Under the pieces are notes generated by a model. That model was not told where the DNA came from. It ran no database searches and saw nothing but the letters and a program-made list of their open reading frames with translations. DNA of 64,000 nt from Candidatus Faecalibacterium gallistercoris (GTDB lineage: Bacteria; Bacillota; Clostridia; Oscillospirales; Ruminococcaceae). This document shows, piece after piece, positions 3,342-16,173 of this stretch (positions within the stretch are counted from its first letter, which is position 1; each line of letters starts with the position of its first letter). The translations under genes were made by a program, and so were the position numbers. Location of the stretch: positions 5,799 to 69,798 of the forward strand of contig DXBJ01000013.1 in assembly GCA_019116585.1 (NCBI GenBank). Reading direction: 5' to 3'.

Positions 3342-4496
3342 TCACATTTCGGCGCCGGATTCCGTGACCGGCTTACAAAGCCTCGGCTCGGCCCAGGCCA
3401 GCAGCTCCCGGACCGACGCGGCGTCGCCGGCGTAGGGCCAGGCCGCCAGCATTTTGTCCAGGGCTCTGCGCCGCCGGGCGGCTTCCTCCGTTTTGCCGGC
3501 GGCCAGCGCCTCCCCGTAGAGGACCAGCGCCATGCCGGGATGCGACTTCATCTGCTTGAGGAAGGCCCGCAGCTGTTTTTCCTGCAGGGCGGCCAGGCCG
3601 GCCTCGGTCTGGCCCTCCGTCAGCTGGAAAAACGCCTGATCCACCTCAAGGGAATACCGGTGGACCGCCGCCAGCCGGGCCTCGCTCCCCAGCAGCCTGG
3701 CCCGGAGGGCGGCGGCGTCCTCATACCGCCCTTCGTCCAACAGGCGGCTGTAGCGGCAGACCCACACCGCCCCTTTCAGGGGGTCGTCGGGGCCGGCGCC
3801 GCCCGGCAGCTCGAACCATTCGGCGGGCAGGTCCTTCAGCCGCCGGCCCTCGATCTGGGCCGCGTTGATGGCCAGCTGGGCCCAGATGGCCCGCTGGGCG
3901 GCTTTGTCCCCCCGCAGGCAGAGGGCGTTGTAGCCGTCGTTGGGCATCCCCTGGATCTTCAGCGGGATGCCGTTGACAAGGCCCAGGTACAGCCCCAGCA
4001 TCGCCCAGACCCCCCAAAGCCCGGCGGCCAGAGGCGTTTTCTGCCAGCACAGACATGCCCCCAGCCCGCAGAGGGCCGCCGACAGCAGGTTGGCCGCCGG
4101 CCCGCCCAGATTGTACAGCAGGGAAGGGAAACCCTCCTCCCGCCAGGGGGGCGGGGCCAGCAGGCACTGGCCCCCGGTGCCCGCCAGCTGGTAGCGGCAG
4201 AACTGCAGTCTGCCGTCCTTTTTCAGCAGCATGACGCTGCCGATGCGGAAGGACACGAACCCGTACCCGGTGGCGAGCCCCGCCGCCAGGTGCCCGCCCT
4301 CGTGCAGGACGATCTGGACCAGGACGCCCACCGCAGCCGCCGCCAGCAGGACCAGCAGCTGCCAGCCCGCCAGATCCGCATGGTCCGCCATCCAGGCGCC
4401 CAGCCACCCCGCCCCAAAGCCCAGGGCCATCATCAGCAGGACGGTCAGGACGGCGGCAGGGGAGGGGAGTCTGCGTTTTTTGTTCGGTCGGTTCAT
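3342..4496 (-). CDS. Membrane zinc metallopeptidase, M50/site-2-protease-like, with helical-repeat C-terminal domain
   Basis: HEGGH motif in a TM helix plus a downstream NGIPLKIQGMPNDG (NxxPxxxxDG-like) motif. Multiple hydrophobic segments. Confidence 0.55.
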   Translation of the reverse strand: MNRPNKKRRLPSPAAVLTVLLMMALGFGAGWLGAWMADHADLAGWQLLVLLAAAAVGVLVQIVLHEGGHLAAGLATGYGFVSFRIGSVMLLKKDGRLQFCRYQLAGTGGQCLLAPPPWREEGFPSLLYNLGGPAANLLSAALCGLGACLCWQKTPLAAGLWGVWAMLGLYLGLVNGIPLKIQGMPNDGYNALCLRGDKAAQRAIWAQLAINAAQIEGRRLKDLPAEWFELPGGAGPDDPLKGAVWVCRYSRLLDEGRYEDAAALRARLLGSEARLAAVHRYSLEVDQAFFQLTEGQTEAGLAALQEKQLRAFLKQMKSHPGMALVLYGEALAAGKTEEAARRRRALDKMLAAWPYAGDAASVRELLAWAEPRLCKPVTESGAEM

Positions 4497-5648: not shown

Positions 5649-6413
5649 ATGCCATCCTGTTCGCCGTTCTGGTATACGGTCGACACCATGCAGGCGCTGC
5701 ATGGGTACGACTACCACGCGTTTGAGCTGTTCGGCCCGGTGCACCTGTTCTGGCTGGGGCTGTGCGCCTTTTTGTGCGCCGGGGGCTCGGTCCTGTTCCG
5801 CCGCCTGGGGCCGGCGGGCCGGCAGCGGGTGCTCCGTGTGCTGACCCTCCTGCTGCTGGCCGACGAGCTGCTGAAGGACGTCTCCTCCCTGGCCACGGGG
5901 CAGTTCGTGTGGGCTTTTCTGCCGTTCCATTTGTGCAGCATCAACCTGTTCGTCTGCGTCTGGTACGCCCTGCGCCCCCACACTCTGGCCGCCGAAGTGC
6001 TCTACGCCCTCTGCCTGCCCGGCGCGGCGGCGGCCCTGCTTTTCCCCTCCTGGCAGGCCCTGCCCTTGTGGAACGTCATGCACCTGCACTCCAGCACCGT
6101 CCACACCATGCTGGTGCTGTTCCCGGTGCTGCTGCTGGCGGGAGGCTTCCGCCCCGACGTCCGCCGCCTGCCCAAGGTATGCGCCGTCTTTGGCCTGGAC
6201 CTGCTGGCCGCCGCCCTGGTCAACCACCTGTGCGGCACCAATTTCATGTTCCTGCGCGGCTCTTACGGCAACGCCGCCCTCGGCCTGATCGAGCAGGTCT
6301 TTGGCGCCGGCCCGGGCTACCTGGCCGGGCTGGCCCTGATCGTCTGCGCCGTCTGGGCGGCGCTGTACGCGCCGTGGGTCTTCGCCGGATGGAGGAGCAA
6401 GAAAAGGCATTGA
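5649..6413 (+). CDS. Integral membrane protein, YwaF/TMEM164-like (TIGR02206-type)
   Basis: Polytopic hydrophobic protein with a FHLCSINLF segment typical of that family. Start uncertain (alternative M at 5688). Confidence 0.45.
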   Translation: MPSCSPFWYTVDTMQALHGYDYHAFELFGPVHLFWLGLCAFLCAGGSVLFRRLGPAGRQRVLRVLTLLLLADELLKDVSSLATGQFVWAFLPFHLCSINLFVCVWYALRPHTLAAEVLYALCLPGAAAALLFPSWQALPLWNVMHLHSSTVHTMLVLFPVLLLAGGFRPDVRRLPKVCAVFGLDLLAAALVNHLCGTNFMFLRGSYGNAALGLIEQVFGAGPGYLAGLALIVCAVWAALYAPWVFAGWRSKKRH

Positions 6414-6423
6414 ATCGTTGTTA

Positions 6424-6474
6424 AAACGGCCCCTTTTGCTGTACGGTTTCAGCAGAAGGGGCCGTTTCCCGTTT
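6424..6474 (+). terminator. Intrinsic terminator after the ywaF-like gene
   Basis: AACGGCCCCTT ... AAGGGGCCGTT stem followed by a T-rich tail. Confidence 0.6.
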
Positions 6475-6548
6475 GAAGCCCCCTCGGGGGGCGCGCCCGC
6501 AGGGCGCAGGGGGTACATCTATGGGCGGCGGGTGGGATTCGATCAAAA

Positions 6549-6787
6549 CAATGCGGGGGCCAGCCTTTACAGCCGACCCCCGCAGAGGGACCCTATCTTT
6601 CGTGACGCAAAAGTTCTTTTGTTTTGGTGCGATCAACAACAGAAGGAATAATTGGTGTTTTACTCCTTATTTGTCGTCACAGTAAAGGGTGGTGCCAAAC
6701 CGATAAGCGTCTCTAGGACTTACCGGCTCCTATATCAATCCCAGTATGGTGCAGCCGGGACCGTTATAAGTAGATTCAACGAGGCAA
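6549..6787 (-). ncRNA. Unclassified structured RNA-like element, copy A (paralog of 14006-14290)
   Basis: Shares a ~65-nt near-identical core (6584-6648) with copy B. Three hairpins (6553-6583, 6700-6726, 6736-6763) keep pairing between copies through compensatory changes. G-U wobbles exist only on the minus strand. Confidence 0.6.
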
Positions 6788-6793
6788 CGCTTC

Positions 6794-7441
6794 TCATTTG
6801 TCGTTATTGGTCACTTTGGTGGGGGTCTGAGTCATAGTAAAAGCAACAACATAACTCTCGAAATCACCGCTCAGGTTAGTGACCTTGGTGCAAGCAATGC
6901 TACCGGTATAAGCATAACGGTAGGGAACACCCTCCTCACCAACAGCAGGCATATATTTGCCCTGAATCAGACCGTCGACATAATCAGCAACAAACTCCGC
7001 AACACCTTCTTCAGTGTAGCTGCCATCAACAACAAAAATGTCAGCGGCAGTGGTCACAGAAGTAGCCGTATCCCAAAAAAGTTCCTTGCCAAACACCATG
7101 CTGTTGTCACGGTCAATACCCAGCAGGTGACGCATATCCCTAGCGTCAGTCACAAAGACATGGCCTGCGCCCATATTAAAGGTCATCAGGTTCCAACTGT
7201 CGATGGTAGGTGCAACCTTTGCCAGGACACCATTCAAGGTAGCATCATTGGTAAAGGTAATAACATTCTTCTGCTCATCACTCAGCAAGTCGTTAACAGA
7301 AGCAGCAAAAGTATCATCAACGGGATCAACAACAGGGGGAACTTCCTCCTCGTTGCCATTGCTTGCAGTGTCACAAGCGGTCAGCATGCTGACGGCCATG
7401 ATGCCGGCCAGCATCAGAGAAGCAATCTTCTTGAGTTTCAT
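6794..7441 (-). CDS. Hypothetical lipoprotein (low-GC gene)
   Basis: Signal peptide with lipobox MKLKKIASLMLAGIMAVSMLTAC. AAGGAGG RBS. GC content is clearly below that of the neighbours. Confidence 0.7.
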   Translation of the reverse strand: MKLKKIASLMLAGIMAVSMLTACDTASNGNEEEVPPVVDPVDDTFAASVNDLLSDEQKNVITFTNDATLNGVLAKVAPTIDSWNLMTFNMGAGHVFVTDARDMRHLLGIDRDNSMVFGKELFWDTATSVTTAADIFVVDGSYTEEGVAEFVADYVDGLIQGKYMPAVGEEGVPYRYAYTGSIACTKVTNLSGDFESYVVAFTMTQTPTKVTNNDK

Positions 7442-7521
7442 AATGATTTTTTCCTCCTTATGGTGTATAAAAGATAGAGACCCAAAACAGGCTGAAAGGA
7501 AGGTCCTTTCCTTTCAAAGGC

Positions 7522-7547
7522 ATTATAGCATACCCCCCCGGTGTCAA
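7522..7547 (-). promoter_or_regulatory. Putative promoter of the lipoprotein gene (extended -10)
   Basis: Minus strand reads TTGACA-N14-TGCTATAAT. The spacer is short, so activity would rely on the TGnTATAAT extended -10. Confidence 0.4.
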
Positions 7548-7742
7548 GGCCCGATTTACTATTTTTTGGTTTTTGCTTTCTTTTCGTTACTTTGGGAGGA
7601 AGTGTGAAGTGTATGTTTGGATTGTTTATGCGGTGATTTTGTATGTTTATTCTTTTTGTGTTGGTGCGTCGGGTCAGCTTTGCGCTCCCCTCTCCGTCCC
7701 AGCGCAGAGTGCTGGGACACCGCAAAGCGCCTGAGATAGGAG

Positions 7743-7768
7743 CAAAAAAGCGCCCGTTTCCGGGCGCC
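7743..7768 (-). terminator. Intrinsic terminator (second of two after marR)
   Basis: Minus strand reads GGCGCCCGGAAACGGGCGC followed by TTTTTTGC. Confidence 0.6.
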
Positions 7769-7815
7769 TTGCACATTTGTATATTTTTTGTGAAAAAGAA
7801 TAACGGCGGCCGCCG

Positions 7816-7860
7816 CAAAAAAACGAACCGCCCCCATTGCCGGAAAGCAGCGGGGGCGGC
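7816..7860 (-). terminator. Intrinsic terminator after marR
   Basis: Minus strand reads CCGCCCCCGCTGCTTTCCGGCAATGGGGGCGG followed by TTCGTTTTTTT. Confidence 0.65.
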
Positions 7861-7897
7861 TGTACTGTTTTGGGTGGGGTTGGCGAATGGATACGCC

Positions 7898-8398
7898 TCA
7901 GCCCTGCGGTTCGGCATGGCCGGCGGCAGGGCCCGCCTTGTCGGGGGCGGCCTTGCGGGGCGGCAGCTGCAGCTCGGGCATCAACTCGTTGTTGATGACG
8001 GTGAGCATTTCTTCCAGTTTGTTCACGTCCTCGGGCGAAAAGCGCTCGCGCACGCGCTCGATGACGGTGTGCAGGTAAGAATAGCTGATGCTGTAGTAGT
8101 CAATATACTTTTGGGTGGGGCGCAGATGATATTCCCGCCGGTCGGTGGTGGACTGGATCTTTTCCACATAGCCCTTGCGGACCAGGCTGCCGATCTTGTA
8201 GGCAGCGTTGGGTGTCGAGATCTGCATCATGCGGGAGAACTCGGCGATGGTGGGCTCGCCCAGCGCCATGATGCCCTCCATGCAGAAGGACTCGACGGTG
8301 GTCAGCGTGGCCTCCCGCGTGGCGAACCTGTGGAACACTTTCTGGTAAAAATGCAGTTTGAACTTGGTGTAGACAGACTGGAACGCATCCTCCAGCAT
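7898..8398 (-). CDS. MarR family transcriptional regulator
   Basis: Winged-helix core ...GEPTIAEFSRMMQISTPNAAYKIGSLVRKGYVEKIQSTTDRREYHLRPT...; 166 aa. Confidence 0.75.
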   Translation of the reverse strand: MLEDAFQSVYTKFKLHFYQKVFHRFATREATLTTVESFCMEGIMALGEPTIAEFSRMMQISTPNAAYKIGSLVRKGYVEKIQSTTDRREYHLRPTQKYIDYYSISYSYLHTVIERVRERFSPEDVNKLEEMLTVINNELMPELQLPPRKAAPDKAGPAAGHAEPQG

Positions 8399-8510
8399 GG
8401 GCTCTCCCCCTTTCTGAGTAGGTCTACTGGTTGTATTATATCACAACTTTGAACAAAGGGAAAGCCCTTCCCGGCAGAAAGTGCGTTTATTGGACAAAAT
8501 CCGGCCTTTT

Positions 8511-9554
8511 TCAGGCCGCAAAGCCGGTGGTGGCGGGGCTGCCCTCGTAGGTAGCGCCGTCGGCGCGGTAGTAGCGGGTCTGGGCCGAGCCGTCCTCGAG
8601 GGTGTAGACCACCCGGTAGACCTGGCCTTCTTCCACCGGGTTCAGGTAGTTGCTGCAGGGCAGGACCTCGCCGGTGGCGGGCAGGGCCCGGGCCGCCTCA
8701 TAAGCCCCCTCCACCAGCCAGAAAGCCCGGGACCGGTACCCCGGCGCCAGGCCGGTCAGGTCCTGTTCGCCCAGGCAGACGGCGGTGTAGTCCACGCCGC
8801 CCAGCGCCACCAGCTCGATATCCCCGGCCCGGGTGTAGCTGACGCCGGCGGACAGGTTGCGGGCCTGCAGGGCCGCGCCGTACTGCTGGCGCAGCTGGCC
8901 CGCCATACAGGGCACCGTGCCGGTGTTGTAATCCATGGCATACAGGTTGGAGTGGGCCGACCCGGTGATGACCATGACGCTGGCCCCCATGGGCAGAGAC
9001 TCAAAGATGCGGGCCAGATTTTCGGCCATGATGTTTTCCCGGTAGACGTCGTCGCCGGTCTTGTAATACTGCTTGCCCTGCTCGATCACCCGCTGGGCCT
9101 CGTCCCAGTCGGCCGAGCCTATCTGCCCGGTCAGCGCCAGGCCGATCAGGTAGCGGGTGCCGGTGGTGTTGTACTGGTGGCCCACGTCAAACCCGTGAAA
9201 GACCGTCTCGGGGTATTGTTCCTTGATGGACTTGTAAAAATCCCAGATTTTCTGGTCGTGCATGAGGGTACCTTCCAAATCCTCAAACAGGCGGCTGAGG
9301 ATGGCGTCGTCCTCCGCCTTCATCCACAGGTTCATGAACTGGGCCGTGTAGGAGGGCACCTCGATCAAAAGGTCCCGCATCCCCAGCTCATGGTAATACC
9401 CGTCCCAGGCGGCCAGCTCCTGCTCGAGGCAGGCGGGGTCGGCGTGGGTCTCGCCGTACAGATAGATGCGGCCGGTCTGGGCCGCCGCCGCGCCGGGCGC
9501 GGCCAGCGCCAGCATCAGCACCAGCGCCGCGAACAAACTTGCCAGCTTTTTCAT
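8511..9554 (-). CDS. Secreted hypothetical protein, possibly Tiki/ChaN-superfamily-like
   Basis: Signal peptide MKKLASLFAALVLMLALAAPGAAAA. Early LYGETHAD motif resembles the GxxH motif of ChaN/Tiki/erythromycin-esterase-like folds. The family call is tentative. Confidence 0.4.
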   Translation of the reverse strand: MKKLASLFAALVLMLALAAPGAAAAQTGRIYLYGETHADPACLEQELAAWDGYYHELGMRDLLIEVPSYTAQFMNLWMKAEDDAILSRLFEDLEGTLMHDQKIWDFYKSIKEQYPETVFHGFDVGHQYNTTGTRYLIGLALTGQIGSADWDEAQRVIEQGKQYYKTGDDVYRENIMAENLARIFESLPMGASVMVITGSAHSNLYAMDYNTGTVPCMAGQLRQQYGAALQARNLSAGVSYTRAGDIELVALGGVDYTAVCLGEQDLTGLAPGYRSRAFWLVEGAYEAARALPATGEVLPCSNYLNPVEEGQVYRVVYTLEDGSAQTRYYRADGATYEGSPATTGFAA

Positions 9555-9587
9555 GGGGGACCTCCTTTTCTGTTGTGTGTCTGCCGT

Positions 9588-9794
9588 TTATTCTTCCACG
9601 GTGAAGCCCGCCGTCACCGGCGTCCTGCCCTGCTCCGGGTCGTCCGCACGGTAATAGCGGCGCTCCACCGTTCCGTCCTGCAAAGTCGTGTCGATGCGGA
9701 ACACCTCGCCCTTTTTCCTTCCTTCTTCTATTGGAAAACCCTCCCCGGCCGCATGAAGGGCCGGCGGGCGGGGCAAGCTAACCCATACCGTCAA
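9588..9794 (-). pseudogene. Remnant of a paralogous C-terminal domain (no signal peptide or N-domain)
   Basis: The ORF tail ...EVFRIDTTLQDGTVERRYYRADDPEQGRTPVTAGFTVEE parallels the C-terminus of the 8511-9554 product (...QVYRVVYTLEDGSAQTRYYRADGATYEGSPATTGFAA). Confidence 0.4.
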
Positions 9795-10000
9795 GCGAAA
9801 GGGGGCGTGTCGCCGCGCCGGATTACAGAGAGCTTTACCTTGAGATGTTCCGCGCCAGCGAAGCGGCCATCCGGCTGCTGACCGAGGCGCAGGCCCGCGC
9901 CGAGGAGGCGTATCTGGCGGCCGAACCGCCGCCCCTGGCCCTGCCCGGCCGGGAAGAGCCGCCCCTCCCCAAGGGCGGCCCGCCCTGCTGAGGCCAGCGG

Positions 10001-10387
10001 TCAGCCCCGCTTGGCCTCGGCTTTGGCAAGGAACTTCGCGTCGTTGATGATGACCCGCTCGTGGACGCCCTGGCCCACCGGGCCTTTCTCGTCCCGCATG
10101 GCGACGGTGAAGGTCAGCTTGCGGCCTTCTACCGCGATCAGCTCGCTGTCACAGATGACGTGCATCCCCACCGGGGTGGGGGCGGTGTGCTCCAGCGAGA
10201 GTTTGGCGCCCACCGTGCTGCAGCCCGGCTCCAGTTCGGGGGCCACGCTCCGCCAGCAGGCTTCCTCCGCCAGGGCGGCCAGGGCCGGGGTGGCGAATAC
10301 CTCCAAAGTGCCGCTGCCCATGGCGCGGGCGGTGTTTTCGGCGGTGACGGCCGCAGCGGCCTGGCCGCGGATACCAGCTTCCAGCAT
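10001..10387 (-). CDS. Hotdog-fold thioesterase family protein
   Basis: About 128 aa from MLEAGIRGQ... Has the GSGTLEVFATPALAALAEEA and LEHTAPTPVG pattern of small thioesterases. GGAGGAA RBS is 6 nt before ATG 10387. Confidence 0.6.
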   Translation of the reverse strand: MLEAGIRGQAAAAVTAENTARAMGSGTLEVFATPALAALAEEACWRSVAPELEPGCSTVGAKLSLEHTAPTPVGMHVICDSELIAVEGRKLTFTVAMRDEKGPVGQGVHERVIINDAKFLAKAEAKRG

Positions 10388-10539
10388 AATCATTTCCTCC
10401 TTGATGGGGGCCGTGCTCTGGCGCGGCCTCTGTTTTTTATAGCATAGCACATTTTGCGGCCCATTGCATCCCTTTTGGGCAGAAAAGCAGGGGAGAAAAA
10501 GTTTGTTTCATCTTACCGAAAATTTTTTCAAACTCCCTC

Positions 10540-10595
10540 TTGACTTTGGCGCACCGGGTGTTATAATGAACACATGAACAAACATTCATATGTTA
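10540..10595 (+). promoter_or_regulatory. Sigma-70-type promoter plus ArsR/SmtB-type operator
   Basis: TTGACT (10540-10545), 16-nt spacer, TGTTATAAT extended -10 (10559-10567). Immediately followed by ATGAACACATGAACAAACATTCATATGTT, containing a TGAACA-NN-CATTCA imperfect inverted repeat (12-2-12 type). Confidence 0.6.
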
Positions 10596-10619
10596 CCCAC
10601 CCAACAAGGAGGTTCAACG

Positions 10620-10946
10620 ATGGAGCCAATGGCACAGGCCCCCCAGGCCACCCCCGCCGATATGCCCGACGATGAGATCCTGTACGAGCTGGCGGACCTG
10701 TTCCGTGTGTTCGGCGATTCGACCCGGATCAAGATCCTCTACGCCCTCCACGACCAGGAGCTGTGCGTCCAGGACATTGCCTCCCAGGTCGGGCTGAGCC
10801 AGTCCGCCGTCAGCCACCAGCTGCGGGTGCTGAAGGACTCCAAGCTGGTGCGGTTCCGCCGGGATGGCAAGACCGTCTACTACGCGCTGGACGACGACCA
10901 TGTACGCAGCATCCTCTCGCTGGGGATGGAGCATATCGAAGAATGA
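10620..10946 (+). CDS. ArsR/SmtB family metalloregulator
   Basis: LADLFRVFGDSTRIKILYAL...ELCVQDIA...SQSAVSHQLRVLKDSKLV HTH signature. AAGGAGG RBS before ATG 10620. Confidence 0.85.
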   Translation: MEPMAQAPQATPADMPDDEILYELADLFRVFGDSTRIKILYALHDQELCVQDIASQVGLSQSAVSHQLRVLKDSKLVRFRRDGKTVYYALDDDHVRSILSLGMEHIEE

Positions 10947-10971
10947 CACAGCCAGAAAGGACCGGTACATC

Positions 10972-11193
10972 ATGAAAAAGACCTACAAGATCGACGTGGA
11001 CTGCGCCAACTGCGCCAACAAGATGGAGGCCGCCGCTCAAAAGACCCCCGGCGTCAAAAACGCCACCGTCAACTTTATGACCCTGAAAATGAGCGTGGAG
11101 TTTGAAGAGGGCCAGGACCACAAGGCCGTGATGCAGCAGGTCTACGCCAACTGCAAAAAGGTGGAGGACGACTGCGAGATCTTCGGCATCTGA
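10972..11193 (+). CDS. Stand-alone heavy-metal-associated (HMA) domain protein
   Basis: 73 aa, MKKTYKIDVDCANCANKMEAAAQ..., with a CxxC metal-binding motif in a ferredoxin-like HMA layout. Confidence 0.7.
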   Translation: MKKTYKIDVDCANCANKMEAAAQKTPGVKNATVNFMTLKMSVEFEEGQDHKAVMQQVYANCKKVEDDCEIFGI

Positions 11194-11328
11194 CCATTTT
11201 CAGCCCGCTGCGGCTCCTGTTTCTGCCGCAGGCGGCGGCTCCGCTTCGCCGTCCTGTGTGTCCCGCCCGGACGCACAGGCCGTCCGGCCGGGGGCTTTTG
11301 ACCGTTTTAGCCGGGGCCTCCGGCCCGA

Positions 11329-11521
11329 TTTTCCACACCGCGGACCCGTGGAAAGCTGTTGGGTTTTCAACTTTTTCCACGGGTTTTTCCACCGCTTTTG
11401 CGGAAAAGTCCAAAATTTACATGGAAAAGCCCTTTTTATCCCCCTAAAAACGGGGGAAAACGGGTGGAAACTGTGGAGAAACCCCGCATCCGCCCGAAAC
11501 CATGTGGAAAACACACCCCAC
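11329..11521. promoter_or_regulatory. Ectopic DnaA-box cluster (about 9 box-like 9-mers in 193 bp)
   Basis: TTTTCCACA 11329; CGTGGAAAG 11347; TTTTCCACG 11373; TTTTCCACC 11385; ATGGAAAAG 11421; TTATCCCCC 11437; GGTGGAAAC 11463; TGTGGAGAA 11472; TGTGGAAAA 11513. This is the same motif family that fills the dnaA-dnaN spacer. Confidence 0.55.
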
Positions 11522-11547
11522 TTGCCCATAAGAAGGAGGCGTCTGCC

Positions 11548-13461
11548 ATGAATCCCAAGCAAAAAAAGATGCTTTACCGCATCCTGATCGCGGCGGCCCT
11601 GCTGGTTTTGATCCAGCTGCTGCCTCTCACCGGCCTGCTGGCGCTGGCGCCGGTGCCCATGGTCCTGCTGTACCTGATCCCCTACTTTGTGGTGGGCTGG
11701 GACGTGCTGCGCAAAGCCGCCCTGGGCGTGAAAAACCGGCAGCCCTTCGACGAGTGCTTCCTGATGGCGGTGGCCACAGTGGGCGCCTTTGCCCTGGGGG
11801 AGTTTGCCGAGGGGTGCGCCGTCATCCTGTTCTACCAGATCGGCGAGCTGTTCCAGAGCGTGGCGGTGGGCAAGAGCCGCCGCAGCATCGCCGCGCTGAT
11901 GGACATCCGCCCCGACTACGCCAACCTGGAGCAGCCCGACGGCTCCTTTGAGCAGGTGGACCCCGACGAGGTGGAAGTGGGCTCGGTCATCGTCGTGGAG
12001 CCGGGGGAGCGGGTGCCCATCGACGGCGTCATCCTGGAAGGCGCCTCCACCCTGAACACCGCCGCCCTCACCGGCGAAAGCCTGCCCCGGGACGCCCGTG
12101 CCGGGGATGAGATCATCAGCGGCTGCGTGAACATCAGCGGCCTGCTGCGGGTCCGCACCACCAAGGAGTTTGGGGAGTCCACCGTCTCCCGCATCCTGGA
12201 CCTGGTGGAAAATTCCAGCATGAAAAAAGCCCGGGCCGAAAACTTCATCACCCGGTTTGCCCGGGTGTACACCCCGGCGGTCTGCTACAGCGCCCTGGCG
12301 CTGGCCCTGCTGCCCCCCCTGGTCCTGCTGCTGCTGGGCCGGCCCGCCGCCTTTGGCGACTGGGTCTACCGCGCCCTGACCTTCCTGGTCATCAGCTGCC
12401 CCTGCGCCCTGGTCATCTCGATCCCCCTCAGCTTTTTCGGGGGCATCGGCGGGGCCAGCACCTGCGGCATCCTGGTCAAGGGCTCTACCTATCTGGAAGA
12501 GCTGTCCCGCACCGGCATCGTGGTCTTTGACAAGACCGGCACCCTGACCCAGGGCGTCTTTGAGGTGACCGGCGTGTATCCTGCGGGCGGGGTGGACGCC
12601 GCCGCCCTGCTGGAGACGGCGGCCCTGGCCGAAAGCTATTCCAAACACCCCATCTCCCAAAGCCTGAAAAAAGCCTGCGGCAAAGAGCTGGACCCCGCCC
12701 GGGTGGACAAGGTGGAGGAGCTGGGCGGCTACGGCATCACCGCCCAGGTGGACGGCCGGCCCGCCGCGGTGGGCAACGCCCGCCTGATGGCAAAGCTGGG
12801 GCTGGCCGTGCCCGCCGCCAGCCAGCCCGGCACCCTGGTGTATGTGGCCATCGACGGCGCCTACGCCGGCTATATCCTGATCTCGGACGTGGTCAAGCCC
12901 ACCGCCGCCCAGGCCATTGCCGGCCTCAAGCGGGCGGGGGTCCGCCGCACCGTCATGCTCACCGGCGACGCCGAGCCGGTGGCCAAAGCGGTGGCCGCCC
13001 AGCTGGGCATCGGCGAGTACCGCGCCGGCCTGCTGCCGGAGGACAAGGTCGCCCAGGTGGAGGCCCTGCTGGACGAAAAACAGCCCAAAGAAAACCTGGC
13101 CTTTGTGGGGGACGGCATCAACGACGCCCCCGTCCTCTCCCGGGCTGACATCGGCATCGCCATGGGCGCCCTGGGCTCGGACGCCGCCATCGAGGCCGCC
13201 GACATCGTCCTGATGGACGACGACCCCGCCCGCATCGCCCTGGCCATGGATATTTCCCGCCGGACCGTCCGCATCGTCTACCAGAACATCGTCTTTGCCC
13301 TGGCCATCAAGGCGGCCTGCCTGGCCCTGGGCGCTCTGGGCCTGGCGGGGATGTGGCTGGCCATCTTTGCCGACGTGGGCGTGATGGTGCTGGCCGTCCT
13401 CAACGCCACCCGCGCCCTGTACACCCGGGACCTGGTCCGCCGCAACGGCCTGGACAAATGA
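11548..13461 (+). CDS. Heavy-metal-translocating P1B-type ATPase (Cd/Zn/Co-type), lacking an N-terminal HMA domain
   Basis: CPC (ISCPCALVIS), DKTGTLT and GDGINDAP motifs. AAGGAGG RBS before ATG 11548; the ORF-track start at 11359 runs through the box cluster and is unlikely. Confidence 0.9.
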   Translation: MNPKQKKMLYRILIAAALLVLIQLLPLTGLLALAPVPMVLLYLIPYFVVGWDVLRKAALGVKNRQPFDECFLMAVATVGAFALGEFAEGCAVILFYQIGELFQSVAVGKSRRSIAALMDIRPDYANLEQPDGSFEQVDPDEVEVGSVIVVEPGERVPIDGVILEGASTLNTAALTGESLPRDARAGDEIISGCVNISGLLRVRTTKEFGESTVSRILDLVENSSMKKARAENFITRFARVYTPAVCYSALALALLPPLVLLLLGRPAAFGDWVYRALTFLVISCPCALVISIPLSFFGGIGGASTCGILVKGSTYLEELSRTGIVVFDKTGTLTQGVFEVTGVYPAGGVDAAALLETAALAESYSKHPISQSLKKACGKELDPARVDKVEELGGYGITAQVDGRPAAVGNARLMAKLGLAVPAASQPGTLVYVAIDGAYAGYILISDVVKPTAAQAIAGLKRAGVRRTVMLTGDAEPVAKAVAAQLGIGEYRAGLLPEDKVAQVEALLDEKQPKENLAFVGDGINDAPVLSRADIGIAMGALGSDAAIEAADIVLMDDDPARIALAMDISRRTVRIVYQNIVFALAIKAACLALGALGLAGMWLAIFADVGVMVLAVLNATRALYTRDLVRRNGLDK

Positions 13462-13478
13462 CCCTCTTTTGATGCAAA

Positions 13479-13518
13479 AACATCCGCCCTGGAGTCTGCC
13501 GGGGCGGATGTTTCGTTT
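13479..13518. terminator. Bidirectional terminator between the ATPase and eamA-like genes
   Basis: AAAACATCCGCCC ... GGGCGGATGTTT stem with flanking A and T runs. Confidence 0.65.
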
Positions 13519-13930
13519 ATAAGACCATGAACAGGGTGCCCGCCGCGATCAGCCCGCAGCCGATCAGGTTTTTGGAGGTGACGGGCTCGTGCAGGATCAA
13601 AAAGGCCAGCGCCAGGGTGATGACCACGCTCAGCTTGTCCACCGGCACCACCTTGGACGCATCCCCGATCTGCAAAGCGTAATAATAGCACAGCCAGGAC
13701 GCTCCCGTCGCCAGCCCGGACAAGATCAGGAACAGCCAGCTGCGGGGGCCGATGTCCTTCACGCCGCCCTGGGTGCCGGTCAAAAACACCATCCCCCAGG
13801 ACATCGCCAGCACCACCGCCGTCCGTATGGCGGTGGCCAGGGTGGAGTTGACCCCCTCGATGCCGATCTTGGCCAGAATGGAAGTCAGCGCCGCGAACAC
13901 CGCCGACCCCAGCGCAAAAACGAACCACAT
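13517..13930 (-). CDS. Small EamA/DMT-superfamily transporter (single EamA domain)
   Basis: 137 aa with about 5 TM segments. Pattern MWFVFALGSAVFAALTSILAKIG...PVDKLSVVITLALAFLILHE. Confidence 0.7.
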   Translation of the reverse strand: MWFVFALGSAVFAALTSILAKIGIEGVNSTLATAIRTAVVLAMSWGMVFLTGTQGGVKDIGPRSWLFLILSGLATGASWLCYYYALQIGDASKVVPVDKLSVVITLALAFLILHEPVTSKNLIGCGLIAAGTLFMVL

Positions 13931-14005
13931 GGCAATACGCCTCCTTTTCCCTCATCATAGCACGCCGGCAGGGCGGTGGCAAGAGGCAATATGCCCAGCA
14001 ACAAG

Positions 14006-14290
14006 CAATGCGGGGGCCGGCTTCCGCCAGCCCCCGCAGAGGGACCCTATCTTTCGTGACGCAAAGTTCTTTTGTTTTGGTGCGATCAACAACAGAAGGA
14101 ACATTGGTTGGATATTCCTTTTTGCTGTCACATCGGATGGGTGTGTACCCGGGCCCATAGGCGGTCTCAGGGCCTACAGACCCCTCACATCAAACACAGC
14201 ATGGTGCTCTGTGTCTGTTATAAGTAAAAGTGTCCTTACAGATTGACTTCAACCTCAGTCGGAGTGCGATCAATCGTGTAAACGAGGCAA
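14006..14290 (-). ncRNA. Unclassified structured RNA-like element, copy B (paralog of 6549-6787)
   Basis: Core 14038-14101 is near-identical to copy A. Hairpins at 14010-14037 (12 bp, GGAA loop), 14152-14182 and 14191-14217 covary with copy A. Has an extra ~55-nt insertion near its 5' end. Lies ~75 nt upstream of eamA on the same strand. Confidence 0.6.
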
Positions 14291-14425
14291 ACTTTGTGGT
14301 AAGATGAAGTTTTTTCTGCTTTGCCTTACAAAAACTTTGCCTGAATGAACGCAGGTACGCTTGGCTCCCCCCGCGGGGGAGCTGGCACAGGGTGCGCAAG
14401 CGCCCTGTGACTGAGAGGGGCTCCA

Positions 14426-14454
14426 ACAAAAAAGCGCCCGCTTGCGCGGGCGCC
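14426..14454 (-). terminator. Intrinsic terminator ending the hydrolase operon
   Basis: Minus strand reads GCGCCCGCGCAAGCGGGCGC followed by TTTTTTG. Confidence 0.7.
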
Positions 14455-14487
14455 TGGTGCAGACCATCGCTTTTTGTATGTCTTTTT

Positions 14488-16173
14488 TTACGCCTGTGCC
14501 TTGATCTCCGTCTCGATCACGGTGTGCCCTTCGGGGATGGCATAGCGGACGGCAGGGATGCAGACATTGGGGCTGTAGAGGCTGACGTTGGGGTCGCACT
14601 TGATGACGGCGCCTTCGCCCTGGCCCGATACGGTGCAGGACACCGCGGCATTGCGGGCGGTGGCGGTGCCGGCGGCTGTGGACTCCACATAGCCGGGGGC
14701 AAAGCTGGGCACCGCAAAGCCGCAGTCGTAGGCCTCGCAGCGGAAGGCGCTGTCGATCTCGTGGCGGCGGAGGTGGCCGTCCCCGGTGGGCAGGATAGTG
14801 GTGGTCACCGTGATGCCGGGGAAGGGGGACCACTTGCTGACCACCCGGTCGGCCCGGATCTCGTGGGAGAGGGACACCTTGCGGACAAAGACGTTGTCGT
14901 CGATGACAAAGGCCAGCATACTGTCGGGGGCGGCCTGCCAGATCACCTCCCGGCTGCGGGAGGCGCAGAACCCGAAGCGGGTGTCGTAGGCAAACTTGGC
15001 GTATTTTTCGGGGAACTGGCCGTGGCCGTGGCCCTCGTTGACGCCGGCGGCGTAGGCCGTCACCCGGCCCTTGCGGCGGGCCACCAGCATGTTCGCATGG
15101 GGCATGGGCTTGAGGGCGTCCAGAGCGGGCATGGGCTCAGCCTGGGCGGCCCAGAAGGGGTGATCGTCGGGCAGGGCCAGCAGGATAAAGCTCTTCATCC
15201 CCCAATAGGGGCTGCCCGGGGCGTTGTACCGCTCGGCCATGTACATCTGGGGATAGCAGTAGCCAATGGTCAGGATGCCGTCCCGGTCGAAGATCTTCTG
15301 CTCCAGCCACCAGTGGAAGTTGCGGACGATCAGCCCTTTCATCACCCCCAGGGGGAAGGGCTCCAGCCCGGCCCAGACGCAGGCGGCCCAGAAACAGTTC
15401 TGGGCAAAGCGGTAGGTCAGGCTGCGGCCGTAGGGCAGGGCGGCGCCGTTTTCGTCAAACCAGTAGATGAACTGCCGGGCAAACAGCTCGGCCCGGCTGC
15501 GGTAGAGGGCGGCCCGCTCCGGGTCGCTGTCCGCCGCAAAGGCGGCGTACAGCACCCCGTAGTACTGGATGGCCCAGGGGATGTAATAGTCCTTCTGGGG
15601 GCTGGCGCCGTCGGTGGACCAGCCGTCCCCGCTGTAGTAGCTGTCGATGCGCGCAAGGCCACGGGCCATGTTTTCGGCATCGTAGGGCATCCCGCACTTT
15701 TTCAGAGCCAGGTTGACCAGGATCATAAAGAACTGCCAGTTGCACTCGGGGATCTGGTGGTGGTTGATCTGGTCCAGCCAGCGGGCCAGGTTCTGCTTTT
15801 CTGCGCCGGACAGGGGGTCCCACAGCTTGTCGGGGGCGTTCAGCAGGCCGCAGGCGATGGCGGCCATCTCCACAAAGCACTGGTCGTAGTCCTTGCAGCT
15901 GCCCCAGTATTCGGGGTTTTCGGGGTCGGAGCCGGCGGCCAGGCCCCGGCGGTACATGGCTTCAAACTCCGGGTCGGAGCCGCCCCCCATCCAGAAGGGG
16001 ACCAGCGCCCAGAGGGGCCGGCTGAAGGCTTCCAGCTCGATGGCGGCCTGGCCGTAGGTCACGCCGGTGTCCCCCAGGTGGAGCCGGGCCCCGCCCGCCG
16101 AGTAATAGGGCTTGAGAGGGTCGAGAAACAGGTGCATCAGGGCCTGAAAGTCCTGTTTGGTGGAAAGCTGCAT
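14488..16173 (-). CDS. DUF2264 domain-containing protein
   Basis: 561 aa. Conserved stretches such as ...RIDSYYSGDGWSTDG...YYIPWAIQYYG...LPYGRSLTYRFA... are typical of DUF2264 proteins found in uronate/GAG loci. Confidence 0.65.
   Translation of the reverse strand: MQLSTKQDFQALMHLFLDPLKPYYSAGGARLHLGDTGVTYGQAAIELEAFSRPLWALVPFWMGGGSDPEFEAMYRRGLAAGSDPENPEYWGSCKDYDQCFVEMAAIACGLLNAPDKLWDPLSGAEKQNLARWLDQINHHQIPECNWQFFMILVNLALKKCGMPYDAENMARGLARIDSYYSGDGWSTDGASPQKDYYIPWAIQYYGVLYAAFAADSDPERAALYRSRAELFARQFIYWFDENGAALPYGRSLTYRFAQNCFWAACVWAGLEPFPLGVMKGLIVRNFHWWLEQKIFDRDGILTIGYCYPQMYMAERYNAPGSPYWGMKSFILLALPDDHPFWAAQAEPMPALDALKPMPHANMLVARRKGRVTAYAAGVNEGHGHGQFPEKYAKFAYDTRFGFCASRSREVIWQAAPDSMLAFVIDDNVFVRKVSLSHEIRADRVVSKWSPFPGITVTTTILPTGDGHLRRHEIDSAFRCEAYDCGFAVPSFAPGYVESTAAGTATARNAAVSCTVSGQGEGAVIKCDPNVSLYSPNVCIPAVRYAIPEGHTVIETEIKAQA

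Follow-up and report, generated by a model that had tools for sequence, protein, structure and literature searches.

A covarying, multi-copy structured element with a near-invariant core follows the genes of a lipoprotein family in avian-gut Faecalibacterium

Regulation of a bacterial gene by the 3′ untranslated region (UTR) of its own mRNA has been described before. In Staphylococcus aureus, the 3′ UTR of icaR pairs with its own Shine-Dalgarno region, which blocks initiation and creates a cleavage site for RNase III (PMC3868564). In the hbs mRNA of Bacillus subtilis, a 14-bp helix that joins the 5′ UTR to the 3′ UTR modulates cleavage by RNase Y (PMC5737220). The variable vlhA lipoprotein family of Mycoplasma gallisepticum carries GAA repeats in its promoters (PMC6258824). 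Here we describe a structured element that is present twice in a 64-kb stretch of DNA (the window) from contig DXBJ01000013.1 of Candidatus Faecalibacterium gallistercoris; the element and the adjacent lipoprotein gene are read from the minus strand of the window. To our knowledge, bacterial 3′ UTRs seldom hold conserved structures with covariation support, and the small number of cases studied (icaR, hbs) concern one gene each. With a probability of roughly 0.6, we propose that the element is the transcribed 3′ mRNA end of a whole family of lipoprotein genes in avian-gut Faecalibacterium, and that it acts in cis on its own mRNA.

Both copies had been singled out in an earlier note on this DNA as a two-copy structured RNA. 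The stretches are indeed paralogous, with 77% mean column identity between 6500-6830 and 13990-14330 (minus strand) and a near-identical 3′ part, and inside the window they are the only two: 25-mers and 27-mers from their shared core occur exactly twice in the 64 kb, with 0 expected from shuffles, and a profile scan of the window (nhmmer, with 40 copies in the profile of the element) returned two elements, one leader and one family gene, and no third or degenerate element, second leader or second family gene. Beyond the window, the count of two does not hold. An exact 19-mer from the core (GATCGCACCAAAACAAAAG) searched in the one-genome-per-species GTDB gave 76 matches, 69 of them true copies in nine avian Faecalibacterium and Gemmiger genomes, while the other seven are chance matches in unrelated taxa without the rest of the core. 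The true copies are spread over Ca. Faecalibacterium avium (20), Ca. F. intestinigallinarum (13), the cultured isolate Faecalibacterium sp. An122 (12), Ca. F. faecigallinarum (8), Ca. F. faecipullorum (8), three uncultured Faecalibacterium (7 together) and Ca. Gemmiger excrementavium (1), and many of them are located at contig ends. On the Gemmiger contig (L038, DXBO01000012.1, 4174 bp) the core stands at either end, oriented alike (22-37 and 4156-4171). This contig has the sole copy outside a genome labelled Faecalibacterium and illustrates assembly breakage at the element.

What ties these copies together is the gene that precedes them. In all 27 genome copies with at least 900 nucleotides (nt) of upstream DNA, to which the linkage count was limited, the element begins 4-40 nt after the stop codon of a member of one lipoprotein family. 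The same linkage appears from the opposite direction: in 80 metagenome loci that were fetched by protein similarity to the N-terminus, and not by RNA, 79 of the genes have the element downstream (complete wherever the contig extends far enough), among them genes that share no more than 26-34% protein identity with that of the window. Where two genes form an operon, the element follows the last gene only, and similarity between copies ends just past the terminator tail. The earlier note had allowed that the repeat might be just the end of a longer protein-coding insertion sequence; a larger repeated unit does end with this element, and that unit is a lipoprotein gene cassette, not an insertion sequence. 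The homology of the stretches bounded there as 6549-6787 and 14006-14290 stands, though not the limits, for which the profile search gives the values in Table 1. The extra 5′ stretch TTGCCTCGTT (to 6787 and 14290) lies outside the family, and in copy B it is upstream of a coding remnant. This motif resembles part (..AAAGTTTGCCTC..) of separate G+C-rich palindromic repeats (..CCCCTCTCAGTCACAG..CTGTG..GCTCCCCCGCGGGGGGAGCC.., ..GACTGAGAGGG..) that fill the intergenic DNA around cassettes, at ~14355-14423 and 7676-7740 (minus) in the window, at ~7520-7800 in L021, and at ~7440-7900 and 9000-9330 in L025.

The consensus fold and pair counts are based on a MAFFT alignment (A3) of 40 distinct element copies from the genomes. 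The fold comprises 62 pairs, of which 23 are altered on both sides, and 97.7% of its 2451 cells are standard-paired, compared with 39-44% (about 42%) once the 3′ partners have been slid by 1-3 columns. None of 500 shuffles attained any of five structure measures, a control that overstates significance since the copies are related; the slid control is free of that weakness. At the level of the two window copies, single-sequence folding gives z-scores of −4.6 (copy A) and −6.8 (copy B) relative to dinucleotide shuffles, and their two-sequence consensus fold retains all three hairpins first quoted for them, as written, with 5 pairs altered on both sides; the compensatory changes claimed from two sequences are genuine and hold by covariation in the larger sample. 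In A3, G-U and U-G combinations fill 363 cells and A-C and C-A combinations 29, which identifies the folding strand as the gene's sense strand (minus in the window), in agreement with the earlier assignment.

Read from its 5′ end, the fold begins with P1 (CUUAUA/UAUAAG in the consensus of 40 copies) enclosing hairpin 1, whose GCACCAU loop is more than 90% conserved in A3, and continues through hairpin 2, a long-range helix ACCC/GGGU, and the paired region P3/P3b. In P3b a Shine-Dalgarno-like strand (AAGGAG in copy A, AAGGAA in the consensus) is paired with an anti-Shine-Dalgarno-like UUCCUU, and the changes in P3/P3b are all from A-U to G-U, opposite an invariant 3′ strand. Two small invariant hairpins are also part of the consensus fold. 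The terminator itself (helix 8) has 13 consensus pairs, 9 of them changed on both sides, followed by AUUGUUU; together with hairpin 2 it holds most of the two-sided changes. In copy A the G+C-rich stem, the 5-nt loop (3-8 nt being usual) and the U-rich tail TTGTTTTGAT have the make-up of an intrinsic terminator. In all, the element is about 230 nt long, starts a few bases past the stop codon, forms five helical units and closes with an intrinsic terminator.

Besides the covarying helices, there are two segments that hardly change at all. The stems beside the core vary freely. Because the A3 copies had been chosen by the core 19-mer, the invariance of the core was recounted on the protein-selected set, in which 63 distinct elements show four singleton changes and a variant with three or four U (U3/U4). 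Between copies A and B, the shared stretch had been put at ~65 nt; its identity is as described, but the identical core is longer, ~95 nt including the base of the terminator. The second such segment is the 5′ UTR of the lipoprotein gene, where the minor-allele fraction is 0.015 compared with 0.194 at the third codon positions of the adjoining signal peptide. Since both these synonymous sites and the stems vary, the near-invariance of the two UTRs is best explained by selection at the nucleotide level, and not merely by recent duplication or blanket gene conversion. The 5′ UTR contains a hairpin, GGGUCUCUAUCUUUU, and the Shine-Dalgarno sequence AGGAGGAA. The hairpin has 9-10 bp (UGAAAGGAA/UUCCUUUCA, then CCUGUUUUGG) and is flagged as terminator-like by the scan; it may be a leader attenuator. 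In one genome (L066) this hairpin is duplicated, with compensating GGAA-to-GGGA changes.

Table 1. Features of the element, its gene and the neighbouring locus, in window coordinates
Feature	Position	Strand	Evidence or detail
Element copy A, complete structured 3′ UTR of gene 6794-7441	6545..6773	-	nhmmer E = 3e-65, profile positions 2-231
P1 (CUUAUA/UAUAGG) enclosing hairpin 1, loop GCACCAU	6729..6770	-	helix 1: 14 pairs, 5 changed on both sides
Hairpin 2, loop CCUAGAGACGC, GAGAC kept in most copies	6698..6728	-	helix 2: 9/9 pairs changed on both sides
P3/P3b, UGUGACGACAA..AAGGAG with UUCCUU..UUGUUGAUCGCA	6628..6681	-	helices 4 and 5: 100% and 99.4% of cells paired
Invariant core CCUUCUGUUGUUGAUCGCACCAAAACAAAAGAACUUUUGCGUCACGAAAGAUAGGGUCCCUCUG, CCUUCUG to CUCUG, 62-64 nt	6583..6646	-	identical in 40/40 genome copies except for the U3/U4 length variant
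Core stretch UUCCUUCU	6641..6648	-	8 pairs with AGGAGGAA
Core stretch GAAAGAUAGGGUCCC	6587..6601	-	14/15 paired with GGGUCUCUAUCUUUU, two G-U
Predicted intrinsic terminator of copy A, 14-pair G+C-rich stem (10 G-C), loop GUAAA, tail UUGUUUUGAU	6542..6584	-	terminator scan
Lipoprotein gene, 215 amino acids (aa), signal peptide with lipobox LTAC	6794..7441	-	translation
Invariant 5′ UTR of the lipoprotein gene (upper limit estimated; start of transcription unmapped)	7442..7515	-	exact 31-mer in 47 loci
Shine-Dalgarno sequence AGGAGGAA	7451..7458	-	
5′ UTR stretch GGGUCUCUAUCUUUU	7469..7483	-	
5′ UTR hairpin	7492..7517	-	terminator-like in scan
Family promoter: TTGACA, CC, poly-G (7533-7539, G7), TATGC, TATAAT	7522..7547	-	read from sequence
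Half-size EamA transporter gene (137 aa)	13517..13930	-	own promoter TTGCCA-N17-TATGAT at 13954-13982
Predicted terminator of copy B (loop GGAA) and tail	14000..14038	-	sequence, fold, consensus fold
Element copy B, complete but gene-less	14001..14227	-	nhmmer E = 6.5e-71
Invariant core of copy B, U3 variant	14037..14099	-	alignment and k-mer counts
Remnant of a deleted family gene, last 9 codons TPTEVEVNL and stop	14236..14265	-	matches family C-terminus ..TQTPTEVVN..

The lipoprotein in the window belongs to no Pfam or NCBIfam family and has no name in any source, and literature searches for such a family, or for an RNA motif, in Faecalibacterium brought up no relevant work. Its AlphaFold model is confident (predicted local distance difference test 78.7, predicted template modelling score 0.74) and has no neighbour in the PDB at E <= 0.001, so that the protein is modelled as an uncharacterised fold, present in about 8-20 copies per genome. 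Family members are ~215-250 aa long and share the N-terminal signal peptide region, the proteins being highly variable. The gene and its leader stand out in composition, with ~51% G+C at 7001-8000 as compared with ~65% for the genome. Most of the 3185 relatives of the family in databases are on contigs of ~1 kb, which points to breaks in the assemblies at the shared flanks. Contigs with exactly the same EamA or lipoprotein protein stem from chicken-gut metagenomes, and 855 blocks of the assembly collection list exactly this EamA protein, a sign that the organism is widespread in poultry metagenomes.

Upstream of the leader, the promoter shared by the family places a poly-G tract between its −35 and −10 elements, and this tract ranges from G6 to G10, with a mode of G8, across 62 distinct family promoters. 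At one and the same locus in three samples it is G9, G7 and G8 (L021, L022 and L023, ~7900-7930). A tract of G7, as in the window, leaves a spacer of 14 nt between −35 and −10, and G10 one of 17 nt. A simple repeat that differs in length both between copies and between strains, which is what distinguishes a phase-variable family, is therefore present in the promoter, and the variation looks like slipped-strand phase variation of each lipoprotein gene.

How might such a tail act on the mRNA that carries it? In the mechanism that we propose, the terminator and the stacked helices would set and protect the 3′ end of the mRNA, and the invariant core would be a sequence-specific handle. The likeliest use of that handle, put forward tentatively and with well below even odds, would be pairing of the core with the equally invariant 5′ UTR, where UUCCUUCU would pair with the Shine-Dalgarno sequence AGGAGGAA and GAAAGAUAGGGUCCC with GGGUCUCUAUCUUUU, the predicted leader-pairing stretches in the tail being UUCCUUCU and AAAGAUAGGG. 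Such pairing could tune translation or access by RNases, as it does in icaR and hbs. The next most likely use would be recognition of the core and the conserved loops by a dedicated RNA-binding protein. As in icaR and hbs, the element fills the interval from stop codon to predicted terminator, and its predicted complementarity to the leader is above chance. For the whole leader and element the pairing energy is −50.2 kcal/mol (shuffles −35.4 ± 3.9; 0/500 and 1/500 as good), and for the invariant segments only it is −28.9 kcal/mol (shuffles −15.6 ± 3.2; 0/1000 both ways). The helix between GGGUCUCUAUCUUUU and GAAAGAUAGGGUCCC is present in the minimum-energy fold of the dimer, and two of its three mismatches at the DNA level are G-U in the sense RNA, which favours pairing of RNA over an inverted repeat in DNA.

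Several observations weigh against the proposal, in addition to the relatedness of the copies that inflates the shuffle control. Once each RNA has been allowed to fold on itself, the gain from dimer formation is modest, −9.9 kcal/mol as compared with −5.6 ± 2.4 for shuffled leaders. No covariation supports the 5′-3′ helix, because both partners are invariant. The anti-Shine-Dalgarno stretch is already paired within P3b, and the leaders of second genes in two-gene operons carry an altered GGGUCUCUAU motif with the core unchanged. A minority of elements (L043, L046, L047 and L088) lack the GAGAC loop of hairpin 2. Furthermore, mere protection of a 3′ end needs no invariant sequence, so some partner must exist, and perhaps that partner is a protein. 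Finally, transcription is presumed from the DNA to run through the element and to end at its terminator.

Copy A starts ~20 nt past the stop codon (6794-6796) of the lipoprotein gene, with a convergent TMEM164 gene beyond it. Copy B is flanked by a DUF2264 gene with a terminator of its own and, 70 nt downstream, by the same-strand EamA gene. The DNA directly upstream of copy B runs ACT CCG ACT GAG GTT GAA GTC AAT CTG TAA, that is TPTEVEVNL-stop, and because this encodes the C-terminus of the lipoprotein family, copy B is evidently the relic of a cassette from which the gene was deleted with its last 9 codons retained; in strains L002, L004 and L007 a full gene of 212-219 aa occupies the position of copy B. 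The EamA promoter sits between the terminator of copy B and the EamA start codon, so copy B is not the leader of EamA, and it probably just terminates stray transcription ahead of that promoter. A heavy-metal P-type ATPase gene is also found near this locus (~11359-13461, plus strand; L001 3470-6281), accompanied in related strains by genes for an HMA-domain metallochaperone and an ArsR-type helix-turn-helix regulator. The DUF2264-EamA spacer (window 13931-14487; ~1490-3000 in L001-L010) exists in at least four haplotypes around an identical EamA protein, which differ in repeats, cassette presence and lipoprotein alleles, and is a recombination hot spot.

The best of the competing explanations, which we consider credible but unlikely, is that an RNase releases a small RNA (sRNA) from the mRNA, consisting of the whole tail or of its core plus terminator. 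Assisted by an Hfq- or ProQ-like protein, this sRNA would act in trans by way of CCAAAACAAAAGAAC, which is single-stranded and A-rich, on other genes or on the family's leaders. The parts are those expected in the 3′ module of a typical sRNA, namely A-rich sequence that is left unpaired, small hairpins, and a terminator that closes with a U-rich stretch, and a core that stays invariant across paralogues only 26-34% identical would be expected if they all served one shared partner. Gene-less copies also speak for it, since the core is intact in L006 and L008 and a whole gene-less element is kept in the window, and bacterial 3′ UTRs have been reviewed as sources of sRNAs (PMC5502269). However, inspection by eye showed no convincing promoter within the element, and the scan called none on the minus strand between 6300 and 8000. 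Since the element's opening bases are paired in P1, the RNA has to begin upstream of it, within the mRNA. The sequence shows no processing site, the sole complementary target found in the window is the family 5′ UTR itself, and upstream of the gene-less copies there is no obvious promoter, just a terminator. The cis-acting 3′ UTR fits these points better than the free-standing trans-acting RNA that the earlier note had considered, given that the element is tied to the lipoprotein gene and ends in a terminator.

Less probable again is a role at the level of DNA, in which the ends of the cassette (promoter and 5′ UTR on one side, the 3′ core on the other) would be recombination handles for moving or swapping lipoprotein cassettes among loci and strains, either by gene conversion or through a site-specific recombinase acting at GTTCCTT, with the hairpins folding in single-stranded DNA as attC sites do. 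The DUF2264-EamA locus provides one argument for it. There, L002 has a full cassette of ~970 bp with the 7-bp direct repeat GTTCCTT at each border (1856-1862 and 2828-2834), the latter copy forming the 5′ edge of the core; L004 and L007 have other alleles; the window, L001, L003, L005, L009 and L010 have the gene-less element; and L006 and L008 have the core only. Strains thus differ at this locus, with a junction exactly at the start of the core. In addition, the elements are patchworks of short segments that recur in other copies, the ~51% G+C cassettes stand singly between housekeeping genes in a ~65% G+C genome, and family genes are mostly found on ~1 kb contigs. Yet the direct repeat occurs at one locus only, a deletion across 7 bp of microhomology explains L006 equally well, and other cassettes have no GTTCCTT at their 5′ border. 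Among 104 loci searched for inversion junctions, none had an inverted-orientation junction between the 5′ UTR and core repeats. The cassettes have no linked recombinase gene, and the family genes, every one with a promoter of its own, are dispersed instead of forming arrays. That G-U exceeds A-C by 363:29 on the mRNA strand and that homology ends at the predicted transcript end fit RNA better, and the variable synonymous sites next to the 5′ UTR show that the flanks are not simply homogenised. Recombination among copies is evident, and a dedicated mobility mechanism is without support. Rearrangement is also visible on a larger scale, where window 4600-13500 matches L030 (Ca. F. avium DXIR01000007.1) in blocks of 85-88% identity in a different order, with the L030 cassette beside a MarR-like gene in the opposite orientation, which suggests rearrangement breakpoints at cassettes.

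A long shot, in our estimation, is cross-repression in trans within the family, in which tails from genes that their poly-G promoters have switched ON would pair with the identical leaders of other members. The tail or a fragment of it would then act on Shine-Dalgarno-containing leaders, resulting in dosage control or mutual exclusion. If true, this would explain why neither partner can change in any copy.

An orphan omega-type guide RNA, a miniature inverted-repeat transposable element (MITE) or, for copy B, a riboswitch-like leader ahead of EamA would account for a repeated, structured, non-coding element and for the position of copy B 70 nt upstream of a same-strand gene, but downstream of other copies the genes are of various kinds and in many cases convergent, and the linkage counts (27/27 and 79/80) contradict all three, leaving them next to no likelihood. 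The specific candidates were each rejected on their own grounds. For an omega-RNA or reRNA, as for the guide-type RNA suggested earlier, the neighbours are wrong, being a lipoprotein gene, TMEM164, MarR, DUF2264 and EamA, with no tnpB or iscB, transposase, nuclease or insertion sequence end. For a MITE or the non-autonomous mobile element also suggested, no terminal inverted repeats were seen, the element is fused to a family gene, and the sole 7-bp repeat bounds the whole cassette at one locus. A riboswitch is not compatible with an element that is downstream of the family gene in all informative cases, nor with an EamA gene that has its own promoter after the terminator. An integron cassette would require a different junction repeat (GTTCCTT is not GTTRRRY), and here promoters are the genes' own and copies are single and scattered. 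A small open reading frame (ORF) in the element is excluded because copies A and B differ in frame through the U3/U4 variant and only some copies have an AUG, and an antisense ORF because the lengths of the terminator loop differ by non-multiples of three. P3 followed by ACCA resembles a tRNA acceptor stem, but there is no T arm.

Database searches point the same way. Rfam 15 gave 0 matches at the gathering score across the window, with nothing from the raiA, IS605-orfB/omega-RNA, HEARO, ROOL, 6S, T-box or riboswitch models, or any others, in line with the earlier note, which could not match it to the RNA families that it named; at E up to 10, the two regions gave chance-level microRNA and sRNA models near neighbouring terminators, none of which covers the helices. 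ARAGORN found 0 genes for tRNA or transfer-messenger RNA in window 6000-15000. Low-stringency blastn against 50,697 phage records and 72,556 plasmid records, and an exact search for the core in viral contigs, returned no relatives, so the element is not known phage or plasmid cargo. The element matches no described RNA family and is a candidate for a new one in Rfam.

The consequences extend beyond a single locus. A 230-nt fold with a near-invariant core is attached to nearly every member of a fast-diverging lipoprotein family, one that is probably phase-variable as well, in a dominant genus of gut commensals. If the core does pair with the leader, then a family-wide layer of post-transcriptional control would be superimposed on promoter switching. 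The element also serves as a marker for lipoprotein cassettes, and it may explain why assemblies break into ~1-kb lipoprotein contigs. Since one carrier, Faecalibacterium sp. An122, is a cultured isolate, the pairing reading is directly testable.

Of the systems described so far, icaR provides a close parallel, as a long 3′ UTR in a Firmicute with complementarity to its own leader; here the pairing, which is predicted, consists of 8 pairs between UUCCUUCU and AGGAGGAA and a second helix of 15 pairs upstream. The two have no sequence relationship, icaR is a single gene where this tail is common to ~8-20 paralogues per genome, and the present element has a covarying multi-helix fold and an invariant core of 62-64 nt. 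The helix predicted here is of similar length to that of hbs, although hbs is a single housekeeping gene without a large conserved 3′ domain, and the outcome there is protection of the leader. Among 3′-UTR-derived sRNAs are CpxQ, SroC and DapZ. Like the sRNAs of this kind and regulatory 3′ UTRs in general (reviewed in PMC5502269), the element is a conserved tail that shares the terminator of its gene and has an unpaired region suited to base pairing, but those sRNAs are single-locus RNAs of 50-100 nt, and the element is 230 nt long and multi-copy. With the mycoplasma families the lipoprotein family has in common many paralogues, a conserved promoter, leader and signal peptide, divergent mature parts, and a promoter repeat of variable length, which in the vlp family of M. 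hyorhinis is a poly-A tract; the phylum is a different one, the host organism is a gut commensal, and the proteins are unrelated. We know of no description of a conserved structured 3′ UTR as a feature of the mycoplasma variable lipoprotein families. The attC sites of integrons are 57-141 bp long, carry RYYYAAC/GTTRRRY core sites, and occur in arrays of promoterless cassettes next to intI. The element resembles them as a structured imperfect palindrome at the 3′ end of a cassette in which structure is kept more than sequence, but it has no such core site, its cassettes have their own promoters, the copies are scattered with no linked integrase, and half of its sequence is invariant. Regulatory 3′ UTRs of bacteria are known as a kind of element, and what is new is a multi-copy, 230-nt covarying fold with an invariant core that matches an invariant leader.

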